From an uncultured Candidatus Saccharibacteria bacterium (lineage in GTDB: Bacteria > Patescibacteriota > Doudnabacteria > UBA920), in assembly GCA_964436545.1 (NCBI GenBank), contig CAYTCJ010000005.1:12713-76712 (forward strand): 64,000 nt of DNA, given 5' to 3'. The notes beneath the pieces are model-generated. The model had not been told where the DNA came from, ran no database searches, and saw nothing but the letters and a program-made list of their open reading frames with translations. The translations under genes were made by a program, and so were the position numbers. Of this stretch, positions 20,531-52,676 are shown in pieces (position 1 is the first letter of the stretch; each line of letters opens with the position of its first letter).

Positions 20531-20556
20531 TTATTAAAGCGGTAAATTTTAACGGG

Positions 20557-22891: not shown

Positions 22892-23992
22892 ATGGTTGTA
22901 TCAAAAAAATTTTGGAAAAATCGAAAAGTTTTAATAACCGGCGCCAGTGGTTTTGTGGGTTCTAAATTAAGTTTGGCTCTATTTAATTTAGGTGCTCAAG
23001 TAATTGCGGTAGTCCGCCCAGGCACGCAGAAAAGTTCTTTATCCGGCATAAGTGCCAAAATTAAAATTACTGCTTGCAATCTTTCAGATATGGAGCAGGT
23101 TAAAAAACTTTTTCTAAATCAGACTATAGACACTGTCTTTCATCTCGCCGCTTCTCCCATAGTAAGTCAAGTAGCCATGCAACCTCATTTGAGTGTGGAA
23201 AATAACGTATTAAGTACTTTAAATATCTTGGAGGTTTGTCGGCTGAATAAAGTTAAACGAGTGCTGTTAGCATCTTCGGACAAGGTTTATGGTGAACATG
23301 CCAAAACAGAATTAGAATCTTTACCGTTTAAAGAAAGTTATGCTTTAAGAGGTTTAGATATATATAGCGCCTCTAAAGTTTGCGCTGATACTTTAGCACA
23401 AGCTTACGCCTATCAGTATAGAATGTTAGTGGCGGTTTTAAGGTGTGGTAATATTTATGGACCCGGGGATGTGAATTTTACTAGGCTGATTCCCAGAACC
23501 ATTATGCTCCTTTTGTCGGGACGCGCACCGGTAATTAAAGCCGGTCATGAGAAAGTTTTGCGGGAATATTTGTACATAGATGATGCCGTCAGCGCCTATA
23601 TTTTTTTAGCGGAAAAATTAGAAACTTATTACGGATTGAATTTACAGAATATGCCTAAGGTCGGCAAACAAACTTATGGTTGGTTGGCGTTTAATGTGGG
23701 CTCTTACAATCGAAGCCAAACGAAAAAGTTATCAAGTTGTACTAACATTCAAAACGTTACACAAATTATAAAGCTTTTATCTAAGAAAATTAGGTTTATT
23801 CAGCCGGTTGTAGTTTTAAAACCCCCCAAGTATATTGAAATACCCAATGAATATTTAGATTCCACAAAAATATTACAACTGGGTTTTAAAACCAGAGTTA
23901 CTTTGGAGCAGGGGATTGAAAATTCGGTGGTTTGGTATAAAGATAATTTTCAATCATTAAAATCGAAATTTTTGAAACAGGTTTCAGCCTAA
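22892..23992 (+). CDS. CDP-glucose 4,6-dehydratase-like extended SDR (RfbG-like)
   Basis: The N-terminus KKFWKNRKVLITGASGFVGSKLSLALFNLGAQV mirrors the RfbG N-terminus (FWKGKRVFVTGHTGFKGSWLSLWL). YSASK catalytic dyad. Confidence 0.5.
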   Translation: MVVSKKFWKNRKVLITGASGFVGSKLSLALFNLGAQVIAVVRPGTQKSSLSGISAKIKITACNLSDMEQVKKLFLNQTIDTVFHLAASPIVSQVAMQPHLSVENNVLSTLNILEVCRLNKVKRVLLASSDKVYGEHAKTELESLPFKESYALRGLDIYSASKVCADTLAQAYAYQYRMLVAVLRCGNIYGPGDVNFTRLIPRTIMLLLSGRAPVIKAGHEKVLREYLYIDDAVSAYIFLAEKLETYYGLNLQNMPKVGKQTYGWLAFNVGSYNRSQTKKLSSCTNIQNVTQIIKLLSKKIRFIQPVVVLKPPKYIEIPNEYLDSTKILQLGFKTRVTLEQGIENSVVWYKDNFQSLKSKFLKQVSA

Positions 23993-25745: not shown

Positions 25746-26894
25746 ATGTCAAAAACGTTTATTTACCCAAGAACACAGTGTCCGGTTTGTGAAACCACCC
25801 AGCTTCCAGGAGCGATTTTACCCCATAAACATTTACCTTTTCCGCTTTTGCCGGTGTGCGTAGACACGCCTCAAAGCCAAGATGAATTTGCACCTTTTAG
25901 TATTACCATTTGCGAAAAGTGTGGACTGATTCAATTAGTGGATGTGGCTGATCCGGTAGTTTTATATAAAATTTTTCATTCCGATGGTATTGGTAAAGTT
26001 TGGGAAGAGCATTATGAAAAATTTTCTCGTCTTATATTCAAACATCATACTGGGGGAAGTCTGCTTGAGATTGGCTCCGGTCAGGGTAAGTTGATGAAAA
26101 AGTTATTAGAGCATTACCAGACCGGTATGGAAGTGATTGATCCGCAATACGAAGGCCCGAAAGAAAACGTGGTAGTGCATCCTACTTTGCTCAATGCTGA
26201 ATTTGCGTTACAGAATAAAAATAAGTTTTCTGCCGTGGTTTCTTCTCATACATTAGAACATTTTATAGACTTCAATGATTATTTTAGAGATGCTTGGCAG
26301 GTGTTAACCGCCGGCGGATTGCTGTTTACTTCGGTGCCAAATCAGGAGTCAAATTTTGCCAAAGGTTATGGTAATCAATTGAATTTTGAACATCCATCTA
26401 TTTGTACCAATGCCCATTGGCAATATTTACATTATAAAAATGGGTTTGAAATCAAGGAGCTTAGTTTTTTTAAAGATCATTCTGTGCAAATTGTAGCCAA
26501 AAAAGTGGAAAAAGCTATGGAGTTTAATTTAGATGTCAAAGAATTGTCCTTTGCTATTTTAAAACAGTATGAACATAGCATTCAGAATCGGATAAAAATT
26601 ATTTTAGATCAGGCAAAGCCTAACAAGCAGAATTGGATTTTTGGTGCCAGTAATTTTACTCAGCCTTTGTTTGTGTATGGGCTTGATGAAAAAATTTTTA
26701 CCGGGGTTATGGATAACAGTCCACTCAAACACAACAAGCGTCTTTACGGTACATCGTTAATCTGCCGAAAACCCGAAGAGGTGCTTAAAGAGTCGGAAAA
26801 TCTGAGAATATTTTTAAATATCGGACAATATAACATTGAAGTTCAAGAGCAACTATTGGCCATAAATAAAACTCTCGAATTAATTATGCTGTAA
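25746..26894 (+). CDS. Zn-ribbon plus class I SAM methyltransferase, third paralogue of the 14080 and 20557 family
   Basis: CPVCETTQL...CEKCGLIQL Zn ribbon, LLEIGSGQGKL Rossmann, and a C-terminal domain. Confidence 0.55.
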   Translation: MSKTFIYPRTQCPVCETTQLPGAILPHKHLPFPLLPVCVDTPQSQDEFAPFSITICEKCGLIQLVDVADPVVLYKIFHSDGIGKVWEEHYEKFSRLIFKHHTGGSLLEIGSGQGKLMKKLLEHYQTGMEVIDPQYEGPKENVVVHPTLLNAEFALQNKNKFSAVVSSHTLEHFIDFNDYFRDAWQVLTAGGLLFTSVPNQESNFAKGYGNQLNFEHPSICTNAHWQYLHYKNGFEIKELSFFKDHSVQIVAKKVEKAMEFNLDVKELSFAILKQYEHSIQNRIKIILDQAKPNKQNWIFGASNFTQPLFVYGLDEKIFTGVMDNSPLKHNKRLYGTSLICRKPEEVLKESENLRIFLNIGQYNIEVQEQLLAINKTLELIML

Positions 26895-26895
26895 T

Positions 26896-27624
26896 ATGGT
26901 TAACTTTAAAGTTTTAATTACCACTTCTGGGATAGGTTCTCGTTTAGGGGAACTAACTAAGCATACAAATAAGGCATTAATAAAAGTCGCGGGCAAACCG
27001 GCGATTGATTATATTATAGAAAGTTATCCAAAAGATGTGGAGTTTGTGGTCACTATTGGCTATTTAAAAGAACAGGTTAGGGATTATTTAAAAAGTCGAT
27101 TTCCCAGTCATAAATTTACTTTTGCTGAAGTAGATAAGTTTGATGGACTCGGCACGAGTATGGGTTATTCTATACTTCAAGCCAGACAATATTTAACTTG
27201 CCCGTTTATTATTCAATGTAATGATACTTTGGTGTTTGAACCGATTTTAGATCCCAATCTGGAAAATTGGAATGCCGGCACCTTTGGTTCATCTGCTGTA
27301 TCTTATACTTCTTTTAAAATAGTTGGAGATCGCATTTCCAAAATAGCGGATAAAGGCGCCGTGGATTATGATTTGTTGCATATTGGCTTTGTCGGGATAA
27401 AAGATCATGAATTGTTTTGGGAATGTTTGGCAGAACTCTATCATAAAAATCCTAATGATAGCGTGTTAAACGATACCCGCACTATGAATGTTATGATGGA
27501 CAGGGGTGCTACTTTTAAACCCGTGGAATATAAGTTATGGTTGGATATCGGCAATCCGCATGCTCTCAAAGAGACAGAAAAATATTTACTTGCCCATCCT
27601 AATTTACTAACACCTAACACCTAA
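26896..27624 (+). CDS. Stand-alone sugar-phosphate nucleotidyltransferase (MurU/LicC-like, non-RmlA type)
   Basis: KVLITTSGIGSRLGELTKHTNKALIKVAGKPAIDYIIE is an NTP_transferase fold with a noncanonical G-loop. It is paralogous to the N-terminal domain of the next gene. Confidence 0.6.
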   Translation: MVNFKVLITTSGIGSRLGELTKHTNKALIKVAGKPAIDYIIESYPKDVEFVVTIGYLKEQVRDYLKSRFPSHKFTFAEVDKFDGLGTSMGYSILQARQYLTCPFIIQCNDTLVFEPILDPNLENWNAGTFGSSAVSYTSFKIVGDRISKIADKGAVDYDLLHIGFVGIKDHELFWECLAELYHKNPNDSVLNDTRTMNVMMDRGATFKPVEYKLWLDIGNPHALKETEKYLLAHPNLLTPNT

Positions 27625-27642
27625 TCACTAATACCTATTCTT

Positions 27643-29229
27643 ATGACAGAACAAACTTATAAAGTTTTAATCACCACTTCCGGAGTAGGCAGGGATTTGG
27701 GTGAATTTACTAAACACGCTAACCAGAGTTTAGTTAGGTTGGCGCATAAGCCGATTTTGGCGCACATTGTTGAGCTTTACCCCAAAGAGGTGGAAATCGT
27801 TGTGACTTTAGGTTATTTTGGAAGTTTGGTAAAAGAATTTTTAACTTTGGTTTATCCCGAGAGAAGGTTTACTTTTGTGGAAGTGGATAAATACGAAGGC
27901 TTGGGTGCCAGCCAAGGTTATTCTATGCTCTGTGCAAAAGAGCATTTGCACTGCCCGTTTATTTTTCATGCCGGAGATACCATAATTAGAGAGCCGGTAC
28001 CTACGCCTTTAATTCGGAATTGGTGCGGGGGTGCTAAGGGGGAAATGAGCGCCAACTACGCTTCCTTTATTGAGTTGGATGAAAAAATTATGGCTTTTAA
28101 TGGTAAGGGTTATCCCGATTTCGATTATTTGTATATTGGATTAGCCGGAATAAAAGATTACGAAAAATTTTGGCAAATTTTGGAAAACTTGTCTCAGCAA
28201 AAACTTAGTAAGCCGTTAAATGATTTGGTGGTTTACAGTGAAATGATTAAGCAAGGGAGTGAATTTTTTTCTGAGCATTTTAAAACTTGGATAGATATTG
28301 GAAATATTGAAAGCTTAAACACAGCTAGAAAAATTTTAGGCGATGAGTTAATTAATCTGGATAAAGCCGAGGAAGCGACTTACATTTTTGAAAATAGCGT
28401 GGTTAAATTTATGGCCCAGCCTCAGGTGGTTAAAGATCGGGTGAGTCGGGCCACCGAGGTTTTATTGGGTTTGGTACCCAAAATTGAGGGGGTAACTGAA
28501 CATTTTTACAAATATAAATTTTCCGTCGGACGTTTATTTTCCAGAGTTGTCACCCCTAACGATTTTGACAGTTTTTTAGCTTGGGCTAATACGCATTTAT
28601 GGCAATTTTCTACCGAAGTTTCCGAAAATAAATTTAAGGAAGTCTGTATGGATTTTTATAAAACCAAGACTTTAAAGCGTTTAGAGGAATTTTATAATTT
28701 GACCGGAATTAAAGATTCGGCACTGGTAATTAATGGGGAAGAGGTTCCGGCTCTAAGTGAAGTTTTGAGCCAATTAGATTTTACTTGGCTCTCTATGGGT
28801 AAACAAACCGGTTTTCACGGCGATTTGATTTTAGATAATATTATTCGCACTCAGGATTCCTATGTATTGTTAGATTGGCGACAAAATTTTGGCGGACTGC
28901 TTAGAAGTGGAGATATGTATTATGATTTAGCCAAATTGAACCATAATTTATCGGTCAGTCACGATATTATTTTTAATAATAATTTTTTAGTGAAAGTTAG
29001 AGGTAAAATTATCCGGTGCGACATTTTAAGAAGTGCCAATTTAGTGGAATGTGAACGGGTGCTACATGAGTTTGTTTTAAAGCAAGGCATGGATTTGCGC
29101 AAAGTTAAAGTTTTAACGGCGATTGCTTGGCTGAATATGTCACCCTTGCATCACCATCCTTATAATTTCTTTTTGTATTATTATGGCAGATTAGCTTTAT
29201 GGCGAGCTTTAAATAATCCATCAACTTGA
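27643..29229 (+). CDS. Fusion protein: an N-terminal sugar-phosphate nucleotidyltransferase joined to a C-terminal APH/choline-kinase-fold kinase
   Basis: N-terminal YKVLITTSGVGRDLGEFTKHANQSLVRLAHKPILAHIVE. C-terminal HGDLILDNIIRTQDSYVLLDWRQNFGG, the Brenner-motif HGDxxxxN...D of APH, LicA, AmgK and NahK-type kinases. Confidence 0.55.
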   Translation: MTEQTYKVLITTSGVGRDLGEFTKHANQSLVRLAHKPILAHIVELYPKEVEIVVTLGYFGSLVKEFLTLVYPERRFTFVEVDKYEGLGASQGYSMLCAKEHLHCPFIFHAGDTIIREPVPTPLIRNWCGGAKGEMSANYASFIELDEKIMAFNGKGYPDFDYLYIGLAGIKDYEKFWQILENLSQQKLSKPLNDLVVYSEMIKQGSEFFSEHFKTWIDIGNIESLNTARKILGDELINLDKAEEATYIFENSVVKFMAQPQVVKDRVSRATEVLLGLVPKIEGVTEHFYKYKFSVGRLFSRVVTPNDFDSFLAWANTHLWQFSTEVSENKFKEVCMDFYKTKTLKRLEEFYNLTGIKDSALVINGEEVPALSEVLSQLDFTWLSMGKQTGFHGDLILDNIIRTQDSYVLLDWRQNFGGLLRSGDMYYDLAKLNHNLSVSHDIIFNNNFLVKVRGKIIRCDILRSANLVECERVLHEFVLKQGMDLRKVKVLTAIAWLNMSPLHHHPYNFFLYYYGRLALWRALNNPST

Positions 29230-29230
29230 T

Positions 29231-30226
29231 ATGCAACACATTAGTAAATTAGGAATTGGGCCTATGAGCCCGGAGATTGTAGAAGGGGTTTTTTCCCATG
29301 CGCAAAATAGCGGAGCACCCTTAATGCTAATTGCGTCAAAAAATCAAATTGATTTTGATGGCGGTTATTGTGGTAATTGGAATACAGCTCAATATGCGGA
29401 ATATCTTAGTAAAATGAAACAGAAGTATCCTAAAGCGCGTGTATTTATTTGCCGAGATCACTGTGGTCCGGGATTTAAGAATGATTCTTTAGCCGATGTG
29501 TATAAAACTATTGATGCCGATATTGAAAATCATTTTGATTTAATTCACGTAGATTTTTGTCATTTTAAGGGTGCCCGGAAAGAATTATTAGAAGAATCCA
29601 AGAAAGCAATTTTGCATATCAAACAACAAAATCCCAAAATTTTGTTGGAAGTTGGTACCGATGAAAATACCGGAGTTTTTTTAGAAGATGTTTCTGCGAT
29701 TGAAAAGGATATGGCGTATTTCTCAAATATTGCCCCGTTAGAATTTTTTGTAGTCCAAACGGGCAGTTTGGTTAAAGAACAAAATCAAGTGGGAGGTTTT
29801 AACCGTGAGTTTATTGAAAAAATAAAACTTATTTCTCAAAAATATCATGTGGGACTTAAGGAGCATAATTGTGATTACATGGAAGGTGATAAGATAAAAC
29901 ACAGGCAAGGTATAATTGACGCAGTCAATGTAGCGCCACAATTCGGAGTATTACAAACCACTTTAACTTTGCAGAAATGTATAACTTACGGCATAGATTT
30001 TACGGACTTTTTAAACGATGCCTACTTGAGCGGAAAATGGAAAAAGTGGATGTATAAACATACGGACAGTAATAAGTACTTATGTTCAGTTTTAGCCGGA
30101 CACTATATTTTTTCTAATTTAAGTTATCGAAAGCTGGTGGAAAAAATTCATCAACACGAAGATTTTAAATTGAGTTTAATGCAGGAATTAGGCAAAAATT
30201 TTGATTTATATTTAAATAATTTATAG
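29231..30226 (+). CDS. Hypothetical protein, possibly a class II aldolase or GatZ/KbaZ-like TIM-barrel
   Basis: APLMLIASKNQID...CRDHCGPG...IHVDFCH is a weak resemblance to Zn-dependent class II FBP/tagatose-BP aldolase motifs (the DHG region). Confidence 0.3.
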   Translation: MQHISKLGIGPMSPEIVEGVFSHAQNSGAPLMLIASKNQIDFDGGYCGNWNTAQYAEYLSKMKQKYPKARVFICRDHCGPGFKNDSLADVYKTIDADIENHFDLIHVDFCHFKGARKELLEESKKAILHIKQQNPKILLEVGTDENTGVFLEDVSAIEKDMAYFSNIAPLEFFVVQTGSLVKEQNQVGGFNREFIEKIKLISQKYHVGLKEHNCDYMEGDKIKHRQGIIDAVNVAPQFGVLQTTLTLQKCITYGIDFTDFLNDAYLSGKWKKWMYKHTDSNKYLCSVLAGHYIFSNLSYRKLVEKIHQHEDFKLSLMQELGKNFDLYLNNL

Positions 30227-30260
30227 TAGAGTATATCGCAAATTTGTTGGCGAGTTGATA

Positions 30261-30297
30261 AGGACGGTCTTCTGGGACTTTCCCAGAAGACCGTCCT
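30261..30297. promoter_or_regulatory. 17-bp perfect palindrome with a 4-nt loop and no flanking U-tract
   Basis: aggacggtcttctggg-actt-cccagaagaccgtcct, GC-richer than the surrounding sequence. Confidence 0.4.
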
Positions 30298-30325
30298 CAT
30301 CTAAAAGAGTCAAAGGTTTAAAATT

Positions 30326-31570
30326 ATGAACGTTAAACCAAAAGCTATTGCATTTGTAAGCCCCTTCGAAGGAGCCAGAGGGTATTTTTTAGCCGGTTTG
30401 TCGCACTATTATAATTTAACCGTTTATTACTCGGTGAGTAAACGGTTTCGTTTTTTATGGCAAATTTTTCATAAATGGGCATACAGTAACGATGTTCGAT
30501 TTGTGCAATATGCGAGCTTAGAAGCGTTATTAAAAGTTCCGGCTGGCCAAGATGCGATTTTTATTCACCCCAATAGCTTAACGCCTTTTTTTGGGTGGTA
30601 TGAAAATCAAGAAGAAATTACCGAATTTGTTTTAAAAATCAAAGAAAAAACCAAAAAACTTTATTGGATAGATAATGGTGAAAATCAGTATCATTACACG
30701 TCCAAGCCTCAGTTTTGGGATAACATAGATTTGTGTTTTAAAGGGCAAGTATTTAAACCAGAGTATGAACATATTTTTTTCGATCCAAAAAAAGTTGGGT
30801 TATTTCAAGGTAAGGATGTGATGGAAAATCCGAGGATTATTGAAGAAAATATGCGGATGGATTTTAATAAGTATCGGCATAAAATTTTGCCTGTGCCTTA
30901 TGTCCCATGTATAACCAAACCTCAAGATTTGAATTTTTCCTCACATAATAAGGTGTATGATTTGGTGGCAAACACCCGAACCTTTGGTAATGGTACTCTG
31001 CGTTATGGTTTAATAAAACAAGTTCAGAAGCAACTTAAGTCCAAATTTATTTATTCGTTTGATTATGATAATCAAGGATGGGAAACCAATTTGCCCAAAA
31101 ATCAACAGGTTTTTGATTCTTATTTAATTAAGACGGGAAAATTGGGTAAATTTTTGTTTAAATTAAAGTATGGAAAATATTTTTATCCTCAAGAATTATA
31201 TGTGCATAATTTAGCTCGGGCTAAGTGTTTTTTGGCCTTATCTTGGGTGTTATTGTCTTTCCGTACCGCCGACTGTTTTGGGGCGGGAGTGGTAATGATT
31301 AATTTTAGTCATAAAAAATTTGAATATGGAATTCCTATGGAAGACGGGGTAAACTACATCTCTCTGGGGGAGAGAGATGAAATGACCGATGATAATGAAC
31401 AAATTAAGCCGGAGTTTATTCCCGGGATTATAGATAAAATTGAACAGATCTTATCTGATACCCAAAAGCAAGCGGAAATAATAAAAAATGGCAAGGAAAT
31501 TTTTAATCAGTATTACTCTTCCCCAAAACAGTTTGTTGGAAAAGTATTTATGAGTAAAATCGGCTTATGA
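30326..31570 (+). CDS. Hypothetical protein, possibly a glycosyltransferase-like cluster protein
   Basis: A 414-aa ORF with the same codon and composition bias as its neighbours. No recognisable motif. Confidence 0.4.
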   Translation: MNVKPKAIAFVSPFEGARGYFLAGLSHYYNLTVYYSVSKRFRFLWQIFHKWAYSNDVRFVQYASLEALLKVPAGQDAIFIHPNSLTPFFGWYENQEEITEFVLKIKEKTKKLYWIDNGENQYHYTSKPQFWDNIDLCFKGQVFKPEYEHIFFDPKKVGLFQGKDVMENPRIIEENMRMDFNKYRHKILPVPYVPCITKPQDLNFSSHNKVYDLVANTRTFGNGTLRYGLIKQVQKQLKSKFIYSFDYDNQGWETNLPKNQQVFDSYLIKTGKLGKFLFKLKYGKYFYPQELYVHNLARAKCFLALSWVLLSFRTADCFGAGVVMINFSHKKFEYGIPMEDGVNYISLGERDEMTDDNEQIKPEFIPGIIDKIEQILSDTQKQAEIIKNGKEIFNQYYSSPKQFVGKVFMSKIGL

Positions 31571-32442
31571 AAATATTAGTTACGGGTGCCAGTGGCTTTT
31601 TGGGTAGAAATTTAGCGGAATCTTTATCCGCTAACTTTGATTTACTTATGCCGACTCATAAAGATTTGGACTTGCTGGATGCTCAAGCGGTAAAAAAGTT
31701 TTTAAATAAATATTTGCCGGAAGTAGTCATTCATACCGCAGGCGTGGGTTTAACTCGTGAGCAAAATAACACCTCAGAGGTAACAGAAAAAAATTTAAAA
31801 ATGTTTTATAATTTGACTGATTGCCAGGGTTTGTTTAAAAAAATGATTTTCACCGGATCGGGTGCCATTTATGATAAGTCACATTCTTTAGTTAAGGTTC
31901 CGGAAGAAGCTTTTGGTCAGAGTTTGCCTAAGGATCCTTACGGAGCATATAAATACGAGTGTTCCGAATATATTTTAGAGAGGAAAGATATTCTTGATTT
32001 AAGACTTTTTGGGGTATTTGGCAAATACGAAGATTACAAAACTCGTTTCATTTCCAATGCGATTTGTAAATCCATTCTGAATTTACCGGTCAAGATTTAT
32101 AAAAATGTGAATTTTGAATATTTATTTGTGGAAGATTTTGTGAAAATTGTGGAATGGTTCGTGCTTCATGAAGCCCATTACAATAATTACAATGTGGGTA
32201 ATGGTCAGCCAGTTAGTCTGTTACAGATTGCAGAAAAAATTCAAGCTTTATTTAATCCGGATTTGGAAATTAAAGTGCTTTCAGCTGATGGGGGTAATGA
32301 GTATTCTTGCGATCCTTCCCGACTGAAAAACGAGTTAAAAAATTTTAAATTTACCAGCATAGACGAAAGTTTAAAACAGCTTTATAATTGGTATAGTCAA
32401 AATTTATCACTTATAGATAAGGCAACATTAACCCAACAATGA
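31567..32442 (+). CDS. NAD-dependent epimerase/dehydratase family (extended SDR) sugar reductase or epimerase
   Basis: MKILVTGASGFLGRNL and YGAYKYECSEY (YxxxK). Confidence 0.55.
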   Translation: MKILVTGASGFLGRNLAESLSANFDLLMPTHKDLDLLDAQAVKKFLNKYLPEVVIHTAGVGLTREQNNTSEVTEKNLKMFYNLTDCQGLFKKMIFTGSGAIYDKSHSLVKVPEEAFGQSLPKDPYGAYKYECSEYILERKDILDLRLFGVFGKYEDYKTRFISNAICKSILNLPVKIYKNVNFEYLFVEDFVKIVEWFVLHEAHYNNYNVGNGQPVSLLQIAEKIQALFNPDLEIKVLSADGGNEYSCDPSRLKNELKNFKFTSIDESLKQLYNWYSQNLSLIDKATLTQQ

Positions 32443-33248
32443 AAATAACGGAATTGGAAAAAATAGCCAAACAAGCCAGAGGCTTGTTACTTAAAACCGC
32501 GTTTTCGGCAAAATCCGGACATATTGGCAGTGCACTTTCCACTGTGGATGTAATTACCGCTTTGTATTTTGAGTGGTTAAAAATTAACCCCCAAAAGCCT
32601 TTGGCCAAGACCCGTGATTATTTTATTTTAAGCAAAGGTCATGGTTGTTTAGGGCTTTATTCGGTATTGGCTTTAAGAGGTTTTTTTTCGCAGAATCATT
32701 TGGAAACTTATTTTCAAGATAATACGGTATTAACCGGCCATCCGGTTTTAGGTTCCTTGCCAGGCATCGAAGCTTCTACCGGTTCGTTAGGACATGGTTT
32801 TCCAACTGCAGTCGGTTTGGCTTACGGCTTGAAAAACCAAAATCTGCCCAATCGAGTAGTGGTCATGATTAGTGATGGAGAGTGCGACGAAGGCTCCACT
32901 TGGGAAGCCGTGTTGTCTGCGCCGAATTTTAAACTTAATAATTTAACTGTGATTGTGGATAATAATAAAATTCAAAGTTTTGGCACTGTGAAAGAAGTGA
33001 TGAATTTAGAACCTTTTGCGCAGAAGTGGCAGGCATTTGGTTGGCGAGTGTTAGAAATTAATGGGCATAATTTTAAGGAAATTTTGACAGCTTTTAAAAA
33101 AGCAGAAAATAATAAAATAGGACCCAGCGTGATAATCGCTCATACTGTTAAAGGTAAAGGTGTGGATTTTATGGAAAATCGAGTCGATTGGCACTATTTT
33201 AATATGAATGAGGAGCAATATCAACTAGCTATAAAACAATGCGAATAA
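32439..33248 (+). CDS. Transketolase, N-terminal (TPP-binding) subunit of a split transketolase
   Basis: GHIGSALSTVDVITALYF, GHPVLGSLPGIEASTGSLGHGFPTAVGLA, ISDGECDEGSTWEA, NLTVIVDNNKIQ. Confidence 0.8.
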   Translation: MKITELEKIAKQARGLLLKTAFSAKSGHIGSALSTVDVITALYFEWLKINPQKPLAKTRDYFILSKGHGCLGLYSVLALRGFFSQNHLETYFQDNTVLTGHPVLGSLPGIEASTGSLGHGFPTAVGLAYGLKNQNLPNRVVVMISDGECDEGSTWEAVLSAPNFKLNNLTVIVDNNKIQSFGTVKEVMNLEPFAQKWQAFGWRVLEINGHNFKEILTAFKKAENNKIGPSVIIAHTVKGKGVDFMENRVDWHYFNMNEEQYQLAIKQCE

Positions 33249-34168
33249 CTTTTGTTAAAACTTTACTCAAGCTAGCCAAAAAAGATCCTGACATTTTTTT
33301 AATTACCGGAGATTTGGGGTTTATGGCTTTGGAAGAGTTCCGCGACCAATTGCCTAAGCAGTATTTGAATGTGGGTGTAGCTGAGCAAAACATGCTAGCT
33401 ATGGCAGCCGGTTTAGCCTTGTCCGGCAAAAAAGTTTATGCCTATTCCATAATTCCTTTTGCGACCATGCGTCCGTTTGAATTTGTCAGAAATGATATTT
33501 GCTATCAAAATTTAAATGTAAAAATTATTGGCATCGGTGCCGGATTTTCTTATTCACTTTATGGTTCCACCCATCATGGGATAGAAGATATTTCCATTAT
33601 GCGTAGTCTGCCCAATATGACCGTAGTCTGTCCGGGGGATCCTTTGGAAGTGGAAAAAACTACTTTAGCTTCAGTTAAGCATGTGGGGCCAATGTATATT
33701 CGGCTGGGAAAAGCCGGCGAGCCGGTGTTGCATCAAAATTTAAATAATTTTCAAATTGGCCAGGCAGTGGAAATGGGTAAGGGCAAAGATGTGTGTATTA
33801 TAGCCACAAGTAATATTTTAGGGGAAGCGGTTGAAGCATCTAAGCTTTTAAAAGCAAACAAAATTCAGGCATCAGTCTTAAGTATGCACACCATAAAACC
33901 TATAGATACACAGGCCATAATTAAGTCGGCTAAAAAAGCAAAATTGATTGTAACTTTAGAGGAACATAATGTGATTGGGGGCCTCGGCAGTGCTGTGGCT
34001 GAAGTGTTAGCCGATAATCAACTACAGGTAAAGTTTATCCGCTTAGGTATCCCAGACGAATACCCACATAGGATTGGGAGTCAAAAATTTTTTAGAGAAA
34101 AATATAATTTATCCGCCGGTAAGGTTACGGAAATAATACTTAATGCTTCCAAAAAAGGATTTAAATAG
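33239..34168 (+). CDS. Transketolase, C-terminal (pyrimidine-binding) subunit
   Basis: ITGDLGFMALEEFRDQLPKQYLNVGVAEQNMLAMAAGLA plus the C-terminal transketolase domain. It overlaps the N-subunit gene by 10 nt. Confidence 0.8.
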   Translation: MRITFVKTLLKLAKKDPDIFLITGDLGFMALEEFRDQLPKQYLNVGVAEQNMLAMAAGLALSGKKVYAYSIIPFATMRPFEFVRNDICYQNLNVKIIGIGAGFSYSLYGSTHHGIEDISIMRSLPNMTVVCPGDPLEVEKTTLASVKHVGPMYIRLGKAGEPVLHQNLNNFQIGQAVEMGKGKDVCIIATSNILGEAVEASKLLKANKIQASVLSMHTIKPIDTQAIIKSAKKAKLIVTLEEHNVIGGLGSAVAEVLADNQLQVKFIRLGIPDEYPHRIGSQKFFREKYNLSAGKVTEIILNASKKGFK

Positions 34169-34607
34169 TTTAAAAAACATTATTAGTAAAATTAAAAATC
34201 CTGAAAGAGGTATTGAGCAGGAAGTTTTTGATATTTTATGTAAAATTATCACTCACTTGGCTTGTGAGCTAATTGTAATTAATCGACGCAAAGAAATACT
34301 GTTAACTTTTCGTCAAGATAAAATTTGGCAGGGTTGGCATTTTCCCGGAGGTCTTTTAAGATATAGAGAAGCTTTTAAAAGTAGGTTAGAGCAGGTAGCT
34401 AAGCTTGAACTGCAGACCAAATTGAAAACTGCAAAATTTTTGTTTCCCATTAATTACGTAAAAAGCCAAAGAGGTCACGATGTCTCTTTGGTGTTTTTAT
34501 GTGAGTTAAAAGGGGAACCTAAAACCGGTCAATGGTTTAAACAGATGCCCAAAAACATTATTCCGGAACATCGAGCGCTTTGGAAAAAAGTTAAATATAT
34601 GGTCTAA
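34143..34607 (+). CDS. Nudix-like hydrolase with a degenerate Nudix box
   Basis: GWHFPGGLLRYREAFKSRLEQVAKLELQ approximates Gx5Ex7REUxEExGU. Confidence 0.35.
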   Translation: MLPKKDLNSLKNIISKIKNPERGIEQEVFDILCKIITHLACELIVINRRKEILLTFRQDKIWQGWHFPGGLLRYREAFKSRLEQVAKLELQTKLKTAKFLFPINYVKSQRGHDVSLVFLCELKGEPKTGQWFKQMPKNIIPEHRALWKKVKYMV

Positions 34608-34675
34608 TATTAAGTAGACAATTTGTAATTTATCCATTATGATTTATTAATAATCAAGCTAAAAAATCCACACAT

Positions 34676-35929
34676 ATGAACATTTTATTAAACCCAGATT
34701 GGAAATTTAAACCAGGCGAAGATTGGATTTATTACACTAAGGCAGTTTATGGGCAAGAGGAGATTGATGCCGTAGTCAAGTGTTTAAAAGAAGATTGGCT
34801 TGGAAATGGTAAATATACAGATGAATTTGAAGAAAAAATGTCCGCTGAGTTTGGGAAAAAGTATGGGTTGTTTGTAAACTCGGGTTCTTCGGCAAATTTA
34901 TTGGCTTTAGAAATTTGTGATTTTAAACCGGGGAGTGAAATTATTACTCCGGCTTGTACTTTTGGTACCACCATGGGTCCCATTATTATGAAAGGCTTGG
35001 TCCCAGTGGTGGTAGATTCACAGGTAGGAACTTACAACATTGACATCGACTTAATTGAGAAGGCCATTACATCTAAAACCGTGGCGATTATGGTGCCTCA
35101 TGCGGTGGGGAGTTTAAACGATATGCCACGTTTAAGAGAAATTTGTAATAAACACAAATTAAAATTAATTGAAGACAGTTGCGATACTCATGGCTCCAGA
35201 CTGGATGGAAAACCAACGGGAATTTGGTCTGATATTACGACAACGAGTTTTTATGCGTCTCATAACATGACAGCAGGTGGTGGTGGAGGAATGGTAATGG
35301 TAGATGATCCGGAATTAAAACGCCGGGCCAAGATGTTTCGGGATTGGGGGAGAGCTTTGCCAGAAAGGTATGAGCACTATGAAGGAGCGTTTGAAGAGCG
35401 TTATAATTTTAAATTGGACAATATAGATTACGATGGTAAGTTTGTGTTCATGGAACTGGGTTACAATATGAAAGCGGTAGAAATGCAAGCGGCATTTGCT
35501 CTGGTTCAGCTGGGGAGGCTAAAGGAGTTTAATAAAATTCGTATGGCTAATTTTAATAAGATTTACGAATTTTTTAAAAGATACGAAAAATATTTTATTT
35601 TACCCGAAAGTCTGCCCAAGGCGGAAATTTATTGGTTGTCTTTTCCGGTTACACTGCGGGAAGAAGCCGGCATAGAAAGAAAAGCGATGCTTAAATTTTT
35701 TGAGACCAATAAAATTCAGACTCGGCTCTTATTTGCCGGAAATTTATTAAGACACCCGGCTTACAAAACCCTACAAGAGAAAGTGCGGGTAGTGGGGGAC
35801 TTAAAGAATGCCGATTATATAATGAAAAATACTTTTTTAATTGCTTGTCACCATGGTTTGAATGACGAGATGATTAATTATTTAACCGGCAAAATTGAAG
35901 AGTTCTTAAAAGTTAAAAATTTAATTTAG
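34676..35929 (+). CDS. DegT/DnrJ/EryC1 fold sugar 3-dehydratase (ColD/E1-like, PMP-dependent) in which His replaces the Schiff-base Lys
   Basis: YGLFVNSGSSANLLALE. At the conserved SFHxxKxxxxGEGG position the sequence reads SFYASHNMTAGGGGG (Lys to His), the hallmark of GDP-4-keto-6-deoxymannose 3-dehydratase ColD and CDP-4-keto-6-deoxyglucose 3-dehydrase E1. There is no clustered-Cys [2Fe-2S] motif, which favours the ColD type. Confidence 0.6.
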   Translation: MNILLNPDWKFKPGEDWIYYTKAVYGQEEIDAVVKCLKEDWLGNGKYTDEFEEKMSAEFGKKYGLFVNSGSSANLLALEICDFKPGSEIITPACTFGTTMGPIIMKGLVPVVVDSQVGTYNIDIDLIEKAITSKTVAIMVPHAVGSLNDMPRLREICNKHKLKLIEDSCDTHGSRLDGKPTGIWSDITTTSFYASHNMTAGGGGGMVMVDDPELKRRAKMFRDWGRALPERYEHYEGAFEERYNFKLDNIDYDGKFVFMELGYNMKAVEMQAAFALVQLGRLKEFNKIRMANFNKIYEFFKRYEKYFILPESLPKAEIYWLSFPVTLREEAGIERKAMLKFFETNKIQTRLLFAGNLLRHPAYKTLQEKVRVVGDLKNADYIMKNTFLIACHHGLNDEMINYLTGKIEEFLKVKNLI

Positions 35930-36783: not shown

Positions 36784-38010
36784 ATGAGTTTTCATGAAAA
36801 ATTAAAACAAGACAGTAAACTGTATTGGCACATACGAGAATGGTATGTGGTTTTTATTTTGTTTTGGAAAAAGTTTTTTGATCGTCCTCAGAAACAAAAA
36901 AAGCGGATTTTATTTTACTATGTCTACGCCTTAGCTTACGGCGGAACTTCCTCTTTAATGCAGATTTTGGCTAAATATTTGAATAAAGATGAATATGAAG
37001 TGTTTGTGATGTATTCAAGTAAGGTGGAGTCTACAGTGGGTCAAAGTATTCCCGGAAACAGTAGGTTACAATATGTTTTAGAGAGTGGGGTATTTCCCAT
37101 ACCTTTTGATTATGCCTATATAGATAAACGTTTGCCATATTTTATTCACAATACTTCGCCGAGGGTAGAAGAGGTTATTAAGGCGTTTCAGATTGATTTA
37201 TTAGTGGTAACCGGAGCTGGTCATGCTGAGTATCCGTTTAGTCAAATAAAAAATATTCCCATTATACTTTTAAATATTTTTGGTCAAGCCAATGTACAGA
37301 GCAATATTAAGTATCACTTATGTATCTCGGAAGAGGTGGCCAATAAATTGGAGCCTATTGTACCTAAGGAAAAAGTCAAGGTAATTTATGTCCCCAGTGA
37401 AGGCCCTATGAATATGGCTCTGCGAGGACAACAAATTAGAGAGCGTTTTGGCATTAAACCAGAGGATTTGGTATTTGGGAGAATTGGACGTGGGTCAGAT
37501 TGGATTTTTGACCCAATTGGAATTTTGGCTTTTGAAAAAATAGTAAAAAAATATCCCCATACGCATTATTTAATCGTTTGTCCGCCACCAGCTCTGGTAA
37601 AATTACAAACAGAAAAAAATATTCCCAATGTGCATTTTATGGAAGAATTAGGGAAGAAAGAAGAATTATGGGCTTTTTACTACGCTTTGGATGTCTATGC
37701 GCATTTTCGGCACGATGGAGAATCGTTCGGCTTAAATATTGTAGAGGCAATGTTTAAAGGTATGCCAATTATTTCTCATAAATCTAAAATTTGGAATGCG
37801 CATTTGGAATATTTAGATCCTAGTTTTGCTTTTGTGGCAGATATTGATAACGTCAGTCAATACGAACAATTTATGGAGTTTTTTGCTAAAGACACTCAGC
37901 GAGTTCATATTCAAGCAATGAGTGAAAAAGCCAAAGCAAAAGCACAAAAATTTCATATTCATAATCATATTGGAGCTTTTGAAAGCTATATTGAGGAGGC
38001 ACTGAAATGA
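36784..38010 (+). CDS. GT4-like (GT-B fold) glycosyltransferase
   Basis: GESFGLNIVEAMFKGMPIISHKSKIW, an EX7E-like motif. Confidence 0.55.
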   Translation: MSFHEKLKQDSKLYWHIREWYVVFILFWKKFFDRPQKQKKRILFYYVYALAYGGTSSLMQILAKYLNKDEYEVFVMYSSKVESTVGQSIPGNSRLQYVLESGVFPIPFDYAYIDKRLPYFIHNTSPRVEEVIKAFQIDLLVVTGAGHAEYPFSQIKNIPIILLNIFGQANVQSNIKYHLCISEEVANKLEPIVPKEKVKVIYVPSEGPMNMALRGQQIRERFGIKPEDLVFGRIGRGSDWIFDPIGILAFEKIVKKYPHTHYLIVCPPPALVKLQTEKNIPNVHFMEELGKKEELWAFYYALDVYAHFRHDGESFGLNIVEAMFKGMPIISHKSKIWNAHLEYLDPSFAFVADIDNVSQYEQFMEFFAKDTQRVHIQAMSEKAKAKAQKFHIHNHIGAFESYIEEALK

Positions 38011-38834
38011 AAATTGGGATTATCGGGTTAGGTTTTGTGGGGGGAGCTATGCGGAAATTTTTTTTAAATAAAAAAGTCAACGCATTAGTCTTTGATAAAT
38101 ATAAAAATATTGGTTCGGTAACTGAAGTAAACGAAGCGGATGTGGTTTTTATTTGCGTGCCAACTCCGTATCGCACCCAGCATGGGTTTGATATATCGGC
38201 GGTAGTGGATGCCATTAGTATCTTAGTTAAGCCAAAAATTATTGTAATCAAATCCTCAATTATTCCCGGTACTACGGAGAAATTACAGAAACAATTTTCT
38301 CAGCATAAGTTTTTATTCAACCCGGAGTTTTTAACTGAAAAAAAAGCTTATTATGATTTAACTCATCCCGATAGGCAAATTTTGGGCTGGACTCAAAAGA
38401 GTAAATCAGTAGCTAAAAAAGTTTTAAATATTTTGCCAAAGTCCCATCAGAGTTTAATTATACCCAGTCAAGAAGCGGAAATGATAAAGTATATGGCCAA
38501 TACCTTTTTGGCATTAAAGGTGGTGTATGCTAACCAGTTTGCGGATTTGTGTAAAAAATTAAAGATCAATTACTCCGTAGTGGCAAACGGAGTGGGTTTA
38601 GATAAGCGAATTGGATTATCTCACCTGAATGTTTTAGACGGCGGTTATAAAGGTTATGGGGGAAGTTGTTTTCCCAAAGATGTTAATGCCATTATTGAAT
38701 TAGCGCAAGCCAAAAAATTACCTTTCGATTTATTGGTGACCATGCGTACAATTAACCAAAAATATTTACAGCAAAGTGGTTTGACCGAAGAGTATTTTTT
38801 AAACAATTTACACAAAAGTAATGAGAAAAAGTAA
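38007..38834 (+). CDS. Nucleotide-sugar dehydrogenase (UDP-glucose 6-dehydrogenase family), a short form lacking the C-terminal UDP-binding domain
   Basis: MKIGIIGLGFVGGAM, VVFICVPTP, and the catalytic GYGGSCFPKD. At only 275 aa it compares with about 390-440 aa for canonical Ugd. Confidence 0.6.
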   Translation: MKIGIIGLGFVGGAMRKFFLNKKVNALVFDKYKNIGSVTEVNEADVVFICVPTPYRTQHGFDISAVVDAISILVKPKIIVIKSSIIPGTTEKLQKQFSQHKFLFNPEFLTEKKAYYDLTHPDRQILGWTQKSKSVAKKVLNILPKSHQSLIIPSQEAEMIKYMANTFLALKVVYANQFADLCKKLKINYSVVANGVGLDKRIGLSHLNVLDGGYKGYGGSCFPKDVNAIIELAQAKKLPFDLLVTMRTINQKYLQQSGLTEEYFLNNLHKSNEKK

Positions 38835-39780: not shown

Positions 39781-40555
39781 TGAAATTAAAATTCATCCAT
39801 ATCCCAAAATCCCACTTTTGCCCGAAGAGCGAGAGGTCATGGTTAGCCAAGGGGAAGAAAAATTACCCGGGACTCCCAAAAGTGCCGAAGCCTCATTATT
39901 ATTAGACAGAGAAATAAATAAGGTTTTGAGATTTGATGGAAAAAATTCTCAAGATATAAAAAATTTTTGCAGAAGTCTTTTAGAAGACTGGGTAAACAAT
40001 CCGGACAACATGGTGGGATTTTTTAGTAGAGCTTATGAGCAATCTCAGAATAGCCAAGATTTTGCAACAAGAGTTAAAACATTGGAAACATGTCTAACTC
40101 AAAATTTAGCAGATTTGCTGAAGCGAGTGGAAAGTCCAAAGGCGAATGCCATTGGCAAATTTATGAAATTAGCCGTGACAAATCCAATATACGGAGATCG
40201 TGCCCGGGCGATTTTAAGAGGATTTTTTGAAAATGCTCACACCCCGGCTCAATTTATTGATTTATTATATGAGTTTGGTATTGCTTTTATGAAAGAAAGC
40301 GATAGGCAGATGTCAGATGAGTTGTGTAAAATTTTATTGTGGGATTCTGATATTTGTCCTAGATCGCGCGAAAGGGCAATGCGATATCTCTTAGCATTAT
40401 ATATGCAAGGTGGTGAAGTAGTATTTAAGAAATGGACGGAAATAGATGCAGTAATTGCCATGTTTTGTAAAAAGCAACTGCCAGAATCTTCCCAATTATT
40501 TATTGAACAAATAAATGATATCGGTGATGATCGTGAGCTATGGATGTGGGATTGA
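39770..40555 (+). CDS. Hypothetical cytoplasmic protein with no recognisable domain
   Basis: A 261-aa ORF. Its composition (R/E/D/C/W-rich) differs from the neighbouring glycan enzymes. Confidence 0.35.
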   Translation: MLDSEIKIHPYPKIPLLPEEREVMVSQGEEKLPGTPKSAEASLLLDREINKVLRFDGKNSQDIKNFCRSLLEDWVNNPDNMVGFFSRAYEQSQNSQDFATRVKTLETCLTQNLADLLKRVESPKANAIGKFMKLAVTNPIYGDRARAILRGFFENAHTPAQFIDLLYEFGIAFMKESDRQMSDELCKILLWDSDICPRSRERAMRYLLALYMQGGEVVFKKWTEIDAVIAMFCKKQLPESSQLFIEQINDIGDDRELWMWD

Positions 40556-41568
40556 AATTTTGTAGAGATAATCCAGACAAAAAGGATGGCTATATAACAT
40601 ACCGTAGCTTAACAATAGAAGCAGAAAAAAAATTTGGTTTAGTTAAAGTAAGTGGTGAGACATTAGGAAATGTATGGCCATTTACTTTATTTTCCAACCC
40701 TGGGCCTTTAAAAGTTTTGTATAATAAACGATTGGAGCAAGAAAATCCCAACATTGTTCGCATTAGAGTTCCAAATTCACAGACGGGTGAGAGTTTATTA
40801 AAAGTTAAATCACAAAATGAAATAAATAGATATATAATTGAGAATTTAGCTTCTGCTAGAGAACTGACCTTAATTGGCAGAGCTGATGTGGAATTTTTGT
40901 TTTATTTAAGGCCAGAGATTACAAGTGATAAATTAGATGAATTAGCTTTGACAAATTCAAATATCAAACAAAAAATTGTTGTAAGTAAGATTTACGGAAT
41001 TAGTCCAAGGGGCGATAGGGTGTTAGTGACGGCAGATGAAGCTAAGAAGTTAAAATATCATAATGTTTGTTATGAGTTGAGTCCGTCTAACGTGGAAGTA
41101 CCTATAAAATGCACGGTTTTAGTGGATAGAACACAAGTTGTCTTTGGTATAAATAAAAATTATGATGTTGTAGAATTTCCTACTGGAGCAGAGTTGGAGG
41201 TTGAGGCAAAAAAAAGAGCTTTTTTAGATTATTTTATTTTAAGTCATTTATATGAACTACAGTGTTCCGAAAGAATACAACATGGATCAGATCGGCAAGG
41301 AGTTAGTAGAGAAAGTGAATTTAGAGATCGTAGAGCCCATTTACGGCGTTTACCTCAAGGCCAAAAGCCATCAGCTGATGCAATCGGACGAGCAAATCAA
41401 GATCCAAATAGGTTTAATTTAATTGAAATAAACCGAATGAATGACATAGCTGGTAACTCTTCACAAACTTATGTCAGTCCTGTTCATAAGCCAGCACCAG
41501 GGGATCAGCCACTATTATCTTATGCGCCAAACGCATTTGATACTTTTAGAAGTATTATTACTAAGTAG
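40540..41568 (+). CDS. Hypothetical protein with no recognisable domain
   Basis: A 342-aa ORF overlapping the previous gene by 16 nt. Its C-terminal third is R/Q/D-rich and low-complexity. Confidence 0.35.
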   Translation: MDVGLKFCRDNPDKKDGYITYRSLTIEAEKKFGLVKVSGETLGNVWPFTLFSNPGPLKVLYNKRLEQENPNIVRIRVPNSQTGESLLKVKSQNEINRYIIENLASARELTLIGRADVEFLFYLRPEITSDKLDELALTNSNIKQKIVVSKIYGISPRGDRVLVTADEAKKLKYHNVCYELSPSNVEVPIKCTVLVDRTQVVFGINKNYDVVEFPTGAELEVEAKKRAFLDYFILSHLYELQCSERIQHGSDRQGVSRESEFRDRRAHLRRLPQGQKPSADAIGRANQDPNRFNLIEINRMNDIAGNSSQTYVSPVHKPAPGDQPLLSYAPNAFDTFRSIITK

Positions 41569-48010: not shown

Positions 48011-48016
48011 CATTAA

Positions 48017-50296: not shown

Positions 50297-50328
50297 TCAA
50301 CTAATGAACCCAGTAATACAACCCCCAT

Positions 50329-52647: not shown

Positions 52648-52676
52648 CTGCCCCAAAACGGGGCAGTTTTTTTATT
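52648..52676 (+). terminator. Rho-independent terminator
   Basis: ctgcccc-aaaac-ggggcag followed by ttttttt. Confidence 0.55.

Follow-up and report, generated by a model that had tools for sequence, protein, structure and literature searches.

Cytidine diphosphate (CDP)-linked 3,6-dideoxyhexoses are, by the textbook account, made by an oxygen-sensitive two-protein E1/E3 iron-sulfur (Fe-S) system, and only the guanosine diphosphate (GDP)-colitose route, which uses ColD, dispenses with Fe-S. Branched 3,6-dideoxy sugars are known from few examples (yersiniose, erwiniose and caryophyllose), and the published yersiniose and erwiniose pathways use a canonical Fe-S E1 with E3. The characterised 3-dehydratases named in a 2022 review are E1, SpnQ and ColD; E1 and SpnQ carry a four-Cys [2Fe-2S] motif and ColD has none (PMC8987622). 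In yersiniose synthesis, YerE transfers a C2 unit from pyruvate onto CDP-4-keto-3,6-dideoxy-D-glucose, the product of E1, after which the branch is reduced by YerF; with longer donors, ErwE and its relatives carry out the same reaction (PMC9306805). Here we analysed a gene at positions 34676-35929 of a 64,000-nucleotide stretch of DNA from an uncultured Candidatus Saccharibacteria bacterium (contig CAYTCJ010000005.1; the whole stretch is called the window), and compared its product, called the target below, with these enzymes.

Our results suggested that the target is probably a pyridoxamine 5'-phosphate (PMP)-dependent 3-dehydratase of the E1 (RfbH/DdhC/AscC) lineage without a [2Fe-2S] cluster, and that its product, probably CDP-linked, would then receive a two-carbon branch to give a yersiniose-like sugar. 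The fold, the lineage, the catalytic His and the Ser-His pair, the loss of Cys ligands, the clade size, the gene neighbourhoods and the fusions were computed, and from them we infer the chemistry, the nucleotide, the glutamate dependence and the branching step.

Lineage and active site of the target

The closest characterised relative of the target is E1 (DdhC/RfbH/AscC, the CDP-6-deoxy-L-threo-D-glycero-4-hexulose 3-dehydrase of Yersinia pseudotuberculosis, PDB 3bcx). The gene under study is:

34676..35929, + strand: candidate nucleoside diphosphate (NDP)-4-keto-6-deoxyhexose 3-dehydratase of E1 lineage, His-type and without the Cys triad, 417 aa, ATG start

The DegT fold extends over the full length of the protein (Pfam DegT_DnrJ_EryC1, 291 bits, residues 26-407), and the AlphaFold model has a pLDDT of 90.5. 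Foldseek aligned this model to 3bcx with a TM score of 0.89, and to ColD with 0.82-0.83, a score close to those of ordinary sugar aminotransferases. The target is 40% identical to E1 by BLASTP (303-312 bits, 312 by HMMER) versus 29% to ColD (149-155 bits, 149 by HMMER), and its best NCBIfam model is RfbH (NF011936), with 406.8 bits just under the curated equivalog cutoff of 423. The ColD enzymes characterised so far, among them the heptose C3-dehydratases of Campylobacter, share 62-67% identity with each other (PMC10440746), so that at 29% the target does not belong with them. When a tree was built by neighbour joining and rooted on ColD, the target was placed in a clade of E1-like sequences without the loop Cys. 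Judged by sequence, the target is clearly E1-like by descent and no ColD ortholog.

To place the active-site residues in context, three sets of relatives were used. The first is made up of the 120 database sequences closest to the target (51-98% identity, most of them from metagenomes or from the candidate phyla radiation, CPR). The second contains 80 genome loci (45-97% identity), recovered with a search pattern that favoured the target clade. The third contains the 124 full-length sequences among the best 150 of 1088 cluster representatives, which had an E value of 1e-30 or better in an exhaustive search of 1.84 billion such representatives.

Residues 191-205 of the target read SFYASHNMTAGGGGG, with His at residue 196 and Ser195 before it. 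In the HMMER alignment His196 pairs with His220 of Yersinia E1; the printed alignments of the target to 3bcx (wild-type E1) and 3bb8 (the H220K mutant) differ at that residue alone. It also pairs with His188 of E. coli ColD. The preliminary description of this gene, made from the sequence, had seen a DegT-fold enzyme with His replacing the Schiff-base Lys, and both alignments agree with it, with no Lys at the catalytic position. A His occupies this position in 120/120 close homologs, 80/80 genome loci and 123/124 family representatives, and therefore it is not a chance substitution. The pair S195-H196 of the target aligns with S187-H188 of ColD, and E1 has Ala-His there. D170, Y193 and L321 of the target correspond to D194, Y217 and F345 of E1, so that the first two are conserved and the fourth specificity position has become Leu.

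The [2Fe-2S] motif reportedly reads C-X57-C-X1-C-X7-C. C193, C251, C253 and C261 of the 3bcx sequence fit this spacing and we take them to be the ligands, the Cys numbering resting on both the motif and that sequence. The E1 loop CYCAPGCDNTC (C251, C253, C261) aligns with LPERYEHYEGAF of the target, in which all three Cys are missing, and the equivalent positions are also non-Cys in 120/120 close homologs and 80/80 genome loci. Only one of the four ligand positions is kept, C169, the equivalent of E1 C193. This residue is no evidence for a cluster because ColD likewise has a Cys in the same column, and since C169 is the sole invariant Cys of the clade alignment, no substitute Cys site is conserved. 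The earlier observation that a four-Cys cluster is lacking was thus borne out. The missing ligands are, in our alignments, a strong argument against Fe-S chemistry, and without a [2Fe-2S] site the target would be unable to use the E1/E3 electron-transfer route.

An E3 partner was also looked for. Open reading frames (ORFs) of at least 120 aa in the window contain no ferredoxin or FNR-type Pfam domain, in line with the preliminary description, and those of at least 90 aa contain no plant-type [2Fe-2S] motif. A motif scan without a positive control found no plant-type ferredoxin motif in the ORFs of 87 loci or in 22 long representatives and fusions. Extensions of about 320 aa on long family members were considered as a fused E3, and this was rejected by Pfam on ten Cys-less fusions: nine carry a short-chain dehydrogenase/reductase (SDR), RmlC-like, RmlD-like or GT2 domain and one (P0146) has no recognisable extra domain. 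The SDR domains are 4,6-dehydratase-like, the RmlC-like and RmlD-like ones correspond to an epimerase and a reductase, and one protein is a triple fusion; no redox-partner domain was found by Pfam in the Cys-less fusion proteins. SpnQ (the deoxythymidine diphosphate (dTDP)-4-keto-2,6-dideoxyglucose 3-dehydrase of the spinosyn forosamine pathway) is, like the target, an E1 homolog with the catalytic His and no dedicated E3 gene. Unlike the target, it keeps the [2Fe-2S] motif and uses general ferredoxin/flavodoxin reductases, and by this description we set it apart (PMC8987622).

Taken together, the target resembles E1 in its DegT fold, the catalytic His, D194/Y217, the rfbF-rfbG context of its clade and the expected NDP-4-keto-3,6-dideoxyhexose product. 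It differs from E1 in three of the four [2Fe-2S] ligands, in having no E3 partner in the window, in Ser for Ala before the His and in Leu for F345. Because both the ligands and the E3 partner are missing, the two-electron reduction by E1/E3 could not operate here. The resemblance to ColD (GDP-4-keto-6-deoxy-D-mannose 3-dehydratase; E. coli O55 WbdK, PDB 2gms), whose group includes the Campylobacter jejuni HS:5/HS:11 heptose C3-dehydratases, lies in the His that replaces the Schiff-base Lys, in the Ser-His pair, and in the lack of Fe-S and of a reductase. Unlike the target, ColD has 390 aa, has no loop insertion region, belongs to a different branch of the DegT family and works in Gmd/ColC (GDP-mannose) contexts, which are rare beside the target clade. 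The target clade thus appears to combine the scaffold of E1 with features of the active site and the cofactor that recall ColD. The preliminary description had proposed a ColD/E1-type 3-dehydratase with the ColD mechanism as the more likely one. The mechanistic part of this proposal was reasonable given the Ser-His pair and the lack of Fe-S, but the enzyme is of E1 and not ColD descent. Our best inference is an enzyme that is E1 by ancestry, fails the defining Fe-S/E3 features of E1, and is ColD-like in mechanism without being ColD.

Since there are no loop cysteines and no E3-like reductase in the window, a ColD-style, glutamate-recycled mechanism fits best. PMP would form a ketimine with the C4 carbonyl of the NDP-4-keto-6-deoxyhexose. 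His196 would then take the C4' proton and the 3-OH would leave, giving a delta-3,4-hexoseen intermediate. With no cluster to deliver electrons, this intermediate would be released by hydrolysis as an enamine, together with pyridoxal 5'-phosphate (PLP). The enamine would tautomerise and lose ammonia to give the NDP-4-keto-3,6-dideoxyhexose, and L-glutamate would convert PLP back to PMP. Such a scheme would be ColD chemistry (PMC8987622) on an E1 scaffold.

We also considered whether the target might be an incomplete deoxygenase, that is, a His-based 4-aminotransferase, an enzyme stalled at the hexoseen, or one that depends on an unrecognised redox partner. SpnQ does act as an aminotransferase with PLP and glutamate when a reductase is absent (PMC8987622), and F345, the residue replaced by Leu in the target, is one of four positions that shift E1 to transamination when mutated. 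However, the clade has an invariant His, and residues D194 and Y217 of E1 are retained. In fusions and operons the enzyme stands between 4,6-dehydratases on one side and epimerase/reductase, C-methyltransferase or thiamine diphosphate (ThDP) enzymes on the other, and those downstream enzymes need a keto sugar, not an amino sugar. ColD, moreover, is an example of a reaction that can be completed by hydrolysis with no reductase involved. An incomplete deoxygenase is therefore very improbable in our view.

The Cys-less branch of the family

The target is not an isolated case. Among the 124 family representatives, 61 combine the His with no loop Cys and 60 combine it with three or more loop Cys. 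The neighbour-joining tree places the target in a clade of 39 representatives that are all Cys-less and E1 in one of 28 that are all of Fe-S type; a few small mixed groups branch near the base of the ColD-rooted tree. The residue before the His differs as well: it is Ser in 46 of 64 Cys-less representatives, and in the 60 Fe-S representatives it is Ala in 52 and Ser in 4. ColD Ser187, the equivalent residue, is one whose mutation helps to turn the dehydratase into an aminotransferase (bioRxiv 2021.09.04.459008), and the title of PDB entry 3gr9 agrees with this. From these counts, the Cys-less clade appears to be a large and coherent group that makes up about half of the E1-like family diversity and is unstudied, of which the target itself is an ordinary member. 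In the searchable literature we found no characterised Cys-less or Fe-S-free E1 homolog.

Cultured carriers were present among the genome loci (Ruegeria, Ensifer/Sinorhizobium, Novosphingobium, Sphingobium, Qipengyuania and the archaeon Halorhabdus), with Ensifer adhaerens and Novosphingobium lindaniclasticum among the species. A related case is PDB entry 9wvy ('putative NDP-4-keto-6-deoxyglucose-3-dehydratase'), a DegT protein of His type (SFYAGHH) whose aligned loop region is free of Cys. It is distant from the target (153 bits, aligned only over residues 20-289), and no paper on it was found. This entry shows that non-ColD, Cys-less 3-dehydratase candidates are under study.

Two further observations concern the family. 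A second DegT-family paralog lies near the dehydratase gene in four loci (L028 14151-15518, L077 12141-13355, L022 14156-15370 and L020 9520-10776); the L077 paralog is another Cys-less His-type copy, and in the L022 paralog the His position is not conserved (SFFISV). The contig L091, which carries the Fe-S-type relative P0217, has genes for this E1 homolog, an NTP-transferase and a 4,6-dehydratase among many small unannotated ORFs and an Acb5-family match. It has no adjacent E3 and may be a phage or mobile element with a dideoxy-sugar pathway.

Conserved gene module and nucleotide sugar

The genes considered as partners of the target are as follows:

22892..23992, + strand: SDR with the motif SSDKVYG, 366 aa, the best candidate in the window for making the 4-keto-6-deoxy substrate
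31567..32442, + strand: short SDR ('SDR13'), 291 aa, Pfam Epimerase 93 bits, candidate YerF-like branch-carbonyl reductase or 4-ketoreductase
32439..33248, + strand: N-terminal (ThDP-binding) subunit of a split transketolase (TK-N), Pfam Transketolase_N 156 bits; 266 bits and 49% identity to PDB 6yak
33239..34168, + strand: C-terminal subunit of the split transketolase (TK-C), Pfam Transket_pyr and Transketolase_C; 217 bits to PDB 6yaj
34143..34607, + strand: Nudix-fold protein, 154 aa, directly upstream of the dehydratase gene, Pfam NUDIX 30 bits
35934..36779, + strand: GT2-family glycosyltransferase, candidate transferase for the product sugar, Pfam Glycos_transf_2
36784..38010, + strand: GT1/GT4-family glycosyltransferase, Pfam Glycos_transf_1

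The nucleotide sugar was approached through the gene neighbourhoods. The relevant models are TIGR02623 for glucose-1-phosphate cytidylyltransferase (RfbF, the CDP-glucose synthase) and TIGR02622 for CDP-glucose 4,6-dehydratase (RfbG). In the locus of Ruegeria sp. HKCCD8929 (L026), RfbF (315 bits, cutoff 300) and RfbG (447 bits, cutoff 278) are encoded directly upstream of the dehydratase gene. When the ORFs of all loci were clustered and neighbours within 10 kb were counted, with orthologs defined by at least 40% identity, RfbF and RfbG were each found near 26 of the 79 related loci, RmlB near 5, Gmd near 4 and an Fcl-like gene near 1. In the window itself, the SDR at 22892 has the Asp-Lys motif (SSDKVYG) of the verified RfbG (TSDKCY), and the RmlB and Gmd of the window have TDEIYG and SSEMFG. 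Its best NCBIfam model is TIGR02622, and it shares 60% identity with L009 5766-6866, an ortholog within the dehydratase module of that locus. CDP-4-keto-6-deoxy-D-glucose is thus the most likely substrate, or else a different product of a 4,6-dehydratase of the Asp-Lys type like this SDR. The RfbF/RfbG contexts, the fusions and the Asp-Lys SDR argue for this, as does the rarity of Gmd near the relatives.

The preliminary description had predicted GDP-colitose. For this, the target would have to work as a functional analogue of ColD on GDP-4-keto-6-deoxy-D-mannose from Gmd, with the Fcl-like SDR as ColC to give GDP-L-colitose. The two Gmd genes on which the prediction was built are genuine (TIGR01472, 531 and 431 bits, cutoff 415), and an Fcl-like SDR is indeed present in the same locus (16539-17483), though at 264 bits it stays well under the model cutoff of 500. 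The lack of Fe-S ligands and the Ser-His pair of ColD also fit this proposal. The adjacent Nudix protein is faintly similar to GDP-mannose mannosyl hydrolase (25.7 bits, cutoff 146), and GT10 (GDP-fucose-type) glycosyltransferases follow the dehydratase gene in L001 and L006. But the two Gmd genes lie 21-25 kb upstream of the target, and the Gmd and Fcl-like genes together (17-25 kb upstream) are separated from it by a flippase gene and a set of dTDP-sugar genes, with a C-methyltransferase gene in their midst, which suggests a different GDP-6-deoxy sugar. In the nearest relatives (L001, L008, L009, L004 and L010), which have the module, no Gmd gene lies within 10 kb. The window yielded no GT10, and its ORF at 40540-41568 has no Pfam match. 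Together with the descent from E1 and not from ColD and the neighbour counts above, these points leave GDP-4-keto-6-deoxymannose a possible but unlikely substrate, and we regard the colitose prediction as quite improbable.

Several observations concern other sugars of the locus. TylC3-type sugar C-methyltransferases are encoded at 14026-15291 and 20494-21786, one flanked by the Gmd and Fcl-like genes, the other by an RmlC-like gene and RmlB, and the locus probably also makes C-methyl-branched GDP- and dTDP-linked 6-deoxy sugars. In the Ruegeria, Ensifer, Novosphingobium and Sphingobium loci (L026, L060, L068 and L087), a C-methyltransferase gene directly follows the Cys-less dehydratase gene. 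The only nucleotidyltransferases of the window are generic (26896-27624 and a fusion at 27643-29229). They form a pair at 26896-29229, in which a protein of 242 aa is followed by one of 528 aa that has a 44%-identical N-terminal paralog half and a C-terminal APH-type kinase. This pair resembles a sugar (or choline-type) salvage pair and is common only to the syntenic L008. The gene set 25746-31570 (methyltransferase, nucleotidyltransferase, nucleotidyltransferase-kinase fusion, GatZ-like and unknown) was considered as part of the module and rejected, being shared only with L008.

In the window the module runs from SDR13 (31567) through TK-N (32439), TK-C (33239), Nudix (34143) and the dehydratase (34676) to the GT2 (35934) and GT1 (36784) genes, with the split transketolase 0.5-1.4 kb upstream of the target. 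The order recurs in a Candidatus Saccharibacteria metagenome-assembled genome (MAG; L008, 97%, syntenic), in a Doudnabacteria MAG (L009, 78%) and, without Nudix, in L001 (81%). SDR13 orthologs (41-82% identity) stand beside the dehydratase gene in L008, L009, L001, L010, L052, L074, L065 and L058, and in the first five of these loci a ThDP enzyme is found within 10 kb. In L065 and L074 the SDR gene is the last one before the sequence ends, and L058 has its SDR at a contig edge, at a distance of 9.3 kb. Nudix homologs adjoin the dehydratase gene in ten loci (L008, L009, L010, L048, L049, L016, L046, L041, L063 and L014). The GT2 has orthologs at the same position in L008 (86%), L009 (69%), L004 (51%) and L042 (46%), and the GT1/GT4 has orthologs in L008 and L009 (64%) and weaker ones in L004 and L001. 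L008 also has an extra ORF of 213 aa on the minus strand (9278-9919) between its Nudix and dehydratase genes, where the window has a 68-bp spacer (34608-34675) with no ORF remnant. A homolog of this ORF is detectable only in L010/L006 (42%), and similar-sized minus-strand ORFs in L001 and L004 are unmatched by BLAST.

ThDP enzymes are recurrent neighbours of the target relatives. Such an enzyme is encoded no more than 10 kb away, and often immediately adjacent, in 26 of 79 loci; among the 16 loci that reach 50% identity, 12 have one. Two types were seen. The split transketolase, as in the window, is co-located with the dehydratase gene in 11 other loci of several lineages. An acetolactate synthase (ALS)/YerE-like enzyme is encoded directly beside target relatives in 15 loci; in L010-L017 (52-65% identity), such an enzyme of 600 aa replaces the transketolase, often 0-170 bp from the dehydratase gene. 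The genes for RfbF, RfbG, dehydratase, SDR and both transketolase subunits lie within a few kb in alphaproteobacterial MAGs (L037, L080, L061 and L083) and in a Saccharibacteria MAG (L046), and in L037 and L080 they form a single co-directional run.

The two transketolase ORFs match the N and C chains of the split-chain transketolase of Carboxydothermus hydrogenoformans (6yak/6yaj). Unlike that enzyme, the pair is embedded in a glycan locus beside a 3-dehydratase, and its role in branching would be deduced from this position. A dedicated lineage of locus-associated transketolases was considered and found no support, because TK-N is 41-50% identical to other glycan-locus transketolases outside its own sub-clade (62-89% inside) and 49% identical to the housekeeping-type Carboxydothermus enzyme.

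The simplest reading of this arrangement is that the dehydratase would supply a keto-sugar acceptor for ThDP-dependent branching, followed by SDR reduction and glycosyl transfer. The split transketolase would add a two-carbon ketol unit at C4 of the keto sugar, the adjacent short SDR would reduce the branched product, and the result would be a yersiniose-like 4-C-branched 3,6-dideoxyhexose. The two downstream glycosyltransferases would install this sugar in a surface glycan of the CPR/Saccharibacteria-like bacterium. A comparable sequence of a 3-dehydratase giving CDP-4-keto-3,6-dideoxyglucose, ThDP-dependent branching at C4 and an NAD(P)H-dependent reductase is found with YerE/YerF (yersiniose A) and ErwE/ErwF (erwiniose). 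Unlike YerE, the ThDP enzyme of the window is a two-subunit transketolase and not an ALS-like flavoenzyme, so the donor and the branch could differ (ketol/glycolyl versus acetyl). With these partners (transketolase or YerE-like enzyme, SDR, Nudix and two glycosyltransferases), a branched 3,6-dideoxy sugar is therefore suggested rather than colitose.

SDR13 might instead reduce C4 directly. In that case the Fe-S-free 3-dehydratase would lead to a plain 3,6-dideoxyhexose, of the abequose/paratose type or ascarylose-like with an epimerase, and the transketolase would be unrelated. SDR13, with its 291 aa, has the size of CDP-abequose and CDP-paratose synthases. Other members of the clade are adjacent or fused to RmlC-like and RmlD-like enzymes, the classic 3,6-dideoxy-L-hexose route, and the transketolase is as like housekeeping split transketolases as it is like other locus-associated ones. 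In L065 and L074, SDR13 adjoins RfbF and the dehydratase and the available sequence contains no ThDP gene, but in both it ends immediately after SDR13, so that a downstream ThDP gene could follow. The order SDR13, TK-N, TK-C, (Nudix), dehydratase is, however, kept at 55-89% protein identity in L001, L008 and L009, and in L010-L017 a different ThDP enzyme substitutes for the transketolase. Split transketolase genes are also found inside rfbF/rfbG/dehydratase operons of alphaproteobacterial MAGs, although the alphaproteobacterial housekeeping transketolase is normally a single full-length protein. These results make a plain 3,6-dideoxyhexose unlikely, though the least unlikely of the alternatives considered here.

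The reading as an Fe-S-free E1-lineage dehydratase that feeds a branching step has points against it. In the active site, F345 of E1 has become Leu and the Glu of the GEGG motif has become Gly. The covariation of Ser with the loss of the loop Cys (Fisher p = 1.5e-14) comes from a statistic that ignores phylogeny. The missing nearby E3 is weak evidence, because two Fe-S-type relatives (L090 and L091) and SpnQ are likewise without an adjacent E3 and the motif scan had no positive control. The contigs of the Fe-S-type relatives P0157, P0149, P0217 and P0226 were either short or without an E3 as well. On the substrate side, no recognisable CDP-glucose synthase (RfbF) is encoded in the window, two genuine Gmd genes and an Fcl-like gene are, and the SDR at 22892 scores 155 bits with TIGR02622, below the cutoff of 278, and sits 10.7 kb from the target. 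On the branching side, a transketolase in a small CPR genome might be a housekeeping enzyme, and the short SDR could be a plain 4-ketoreductase. We know of no transketolase that branches a nucleotide sugar, nor of any glycan pathway in which a transketolase builds the sugar. Literature searches for transketolase in O-antigen branched-sugar synthesis and for a transketolase-linked branched-sugar pathway gave nothing relevant.

Other genes of the window and implications

Further genes of the window were noted. At 855-3083 and 6337-8475 are encoded paralogous proteins of 742 and 712 aa, with Wzy_C (O-antigen ligase/polymerase) and C-terminal TPR repeats, and they flank a 932-aa LCAT-like lipase/acyltransferase with Ig-like domains. 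Apparent gene remnants are found at 15398-16546 and 38007-38834: a 149-aa flippase-type C-terminal fragment, a 229-aa truncated SDR and a 275-aa nucleotide-sugar dehydrogenase without its C-terminal domain (186.7 bits, cutoff 189.8). The glycan locus is followed at once by a type IV pilus set at 46253-51723 (PilB-like ATPase, PilC, PilM, weak PilN and PilO), which is in keeping with the Saccharibacteria/CPR-like origin that L008 suggests.

At 52183-55296 the GC content rises to 0.49-0.55, versus about 0.36; the genes for tRNA-Arg(tcg) and tRNA-Lys(ctt) lie directly upstream. This stretch encodes an aspartate-semialdehyde dehydrogenase (52682-53818) and an aspartokinase with ACT domains (53722-55296), and looks like a horizontally acquired gene pair; its long antisense ORFs without Pfam matches are probably GC artefacts. 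A 23S rRNA in the GC-rich 52.6-55.3 kb stretch was considered and rejected, as Rfam gave none at either threshold and the stretch encodes two proteins. A copper/heavy-metal cluster lies on the minus strand at 57412-61646 (HMA-DsbD_2 membrane protein, P-type ATPase with an HMA domain and DUF305 protein).

The results may also be read more widely. The Cys-less E1-like branch, about half of the family diversity, might as a whole deoxygenate C-3 of CDP-hexoses without cluster or E3, with a two-subunit transketolase adding a ketol branch at C4 here and in several alphaproteobacterial lineages, an undescribed route. We put this forward tentatively, as something that could be true but for which the odds are clearly lower than for the reading of the target itself. 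If the Cys-less clade works as proposed, about half of the genes annotated 'RfbH / CDP-...-3-dehydrase' would use a different chemistry, and CDP-3,6-dideoxy sugars could be made with a simple PLP/glutamate enzyme. For the same goal, one group failed to reconstitute E1/E3, and a dysfunctional cluster was suspected (PMC7851689). The cultured carriers (Ruegeria, Ensifer, Novosphingobium and Halorhabdus) make the Cys-less clade directly testable. That ThDP enzymes, a transketolase among them, are repeatedly paired with the dehydratase suggests a far wider occurrence of branched 3,6-dideoxy sugars than the few known examples indicate, and such sugars may decorate the surfaces of uncultured CPR bacteria.

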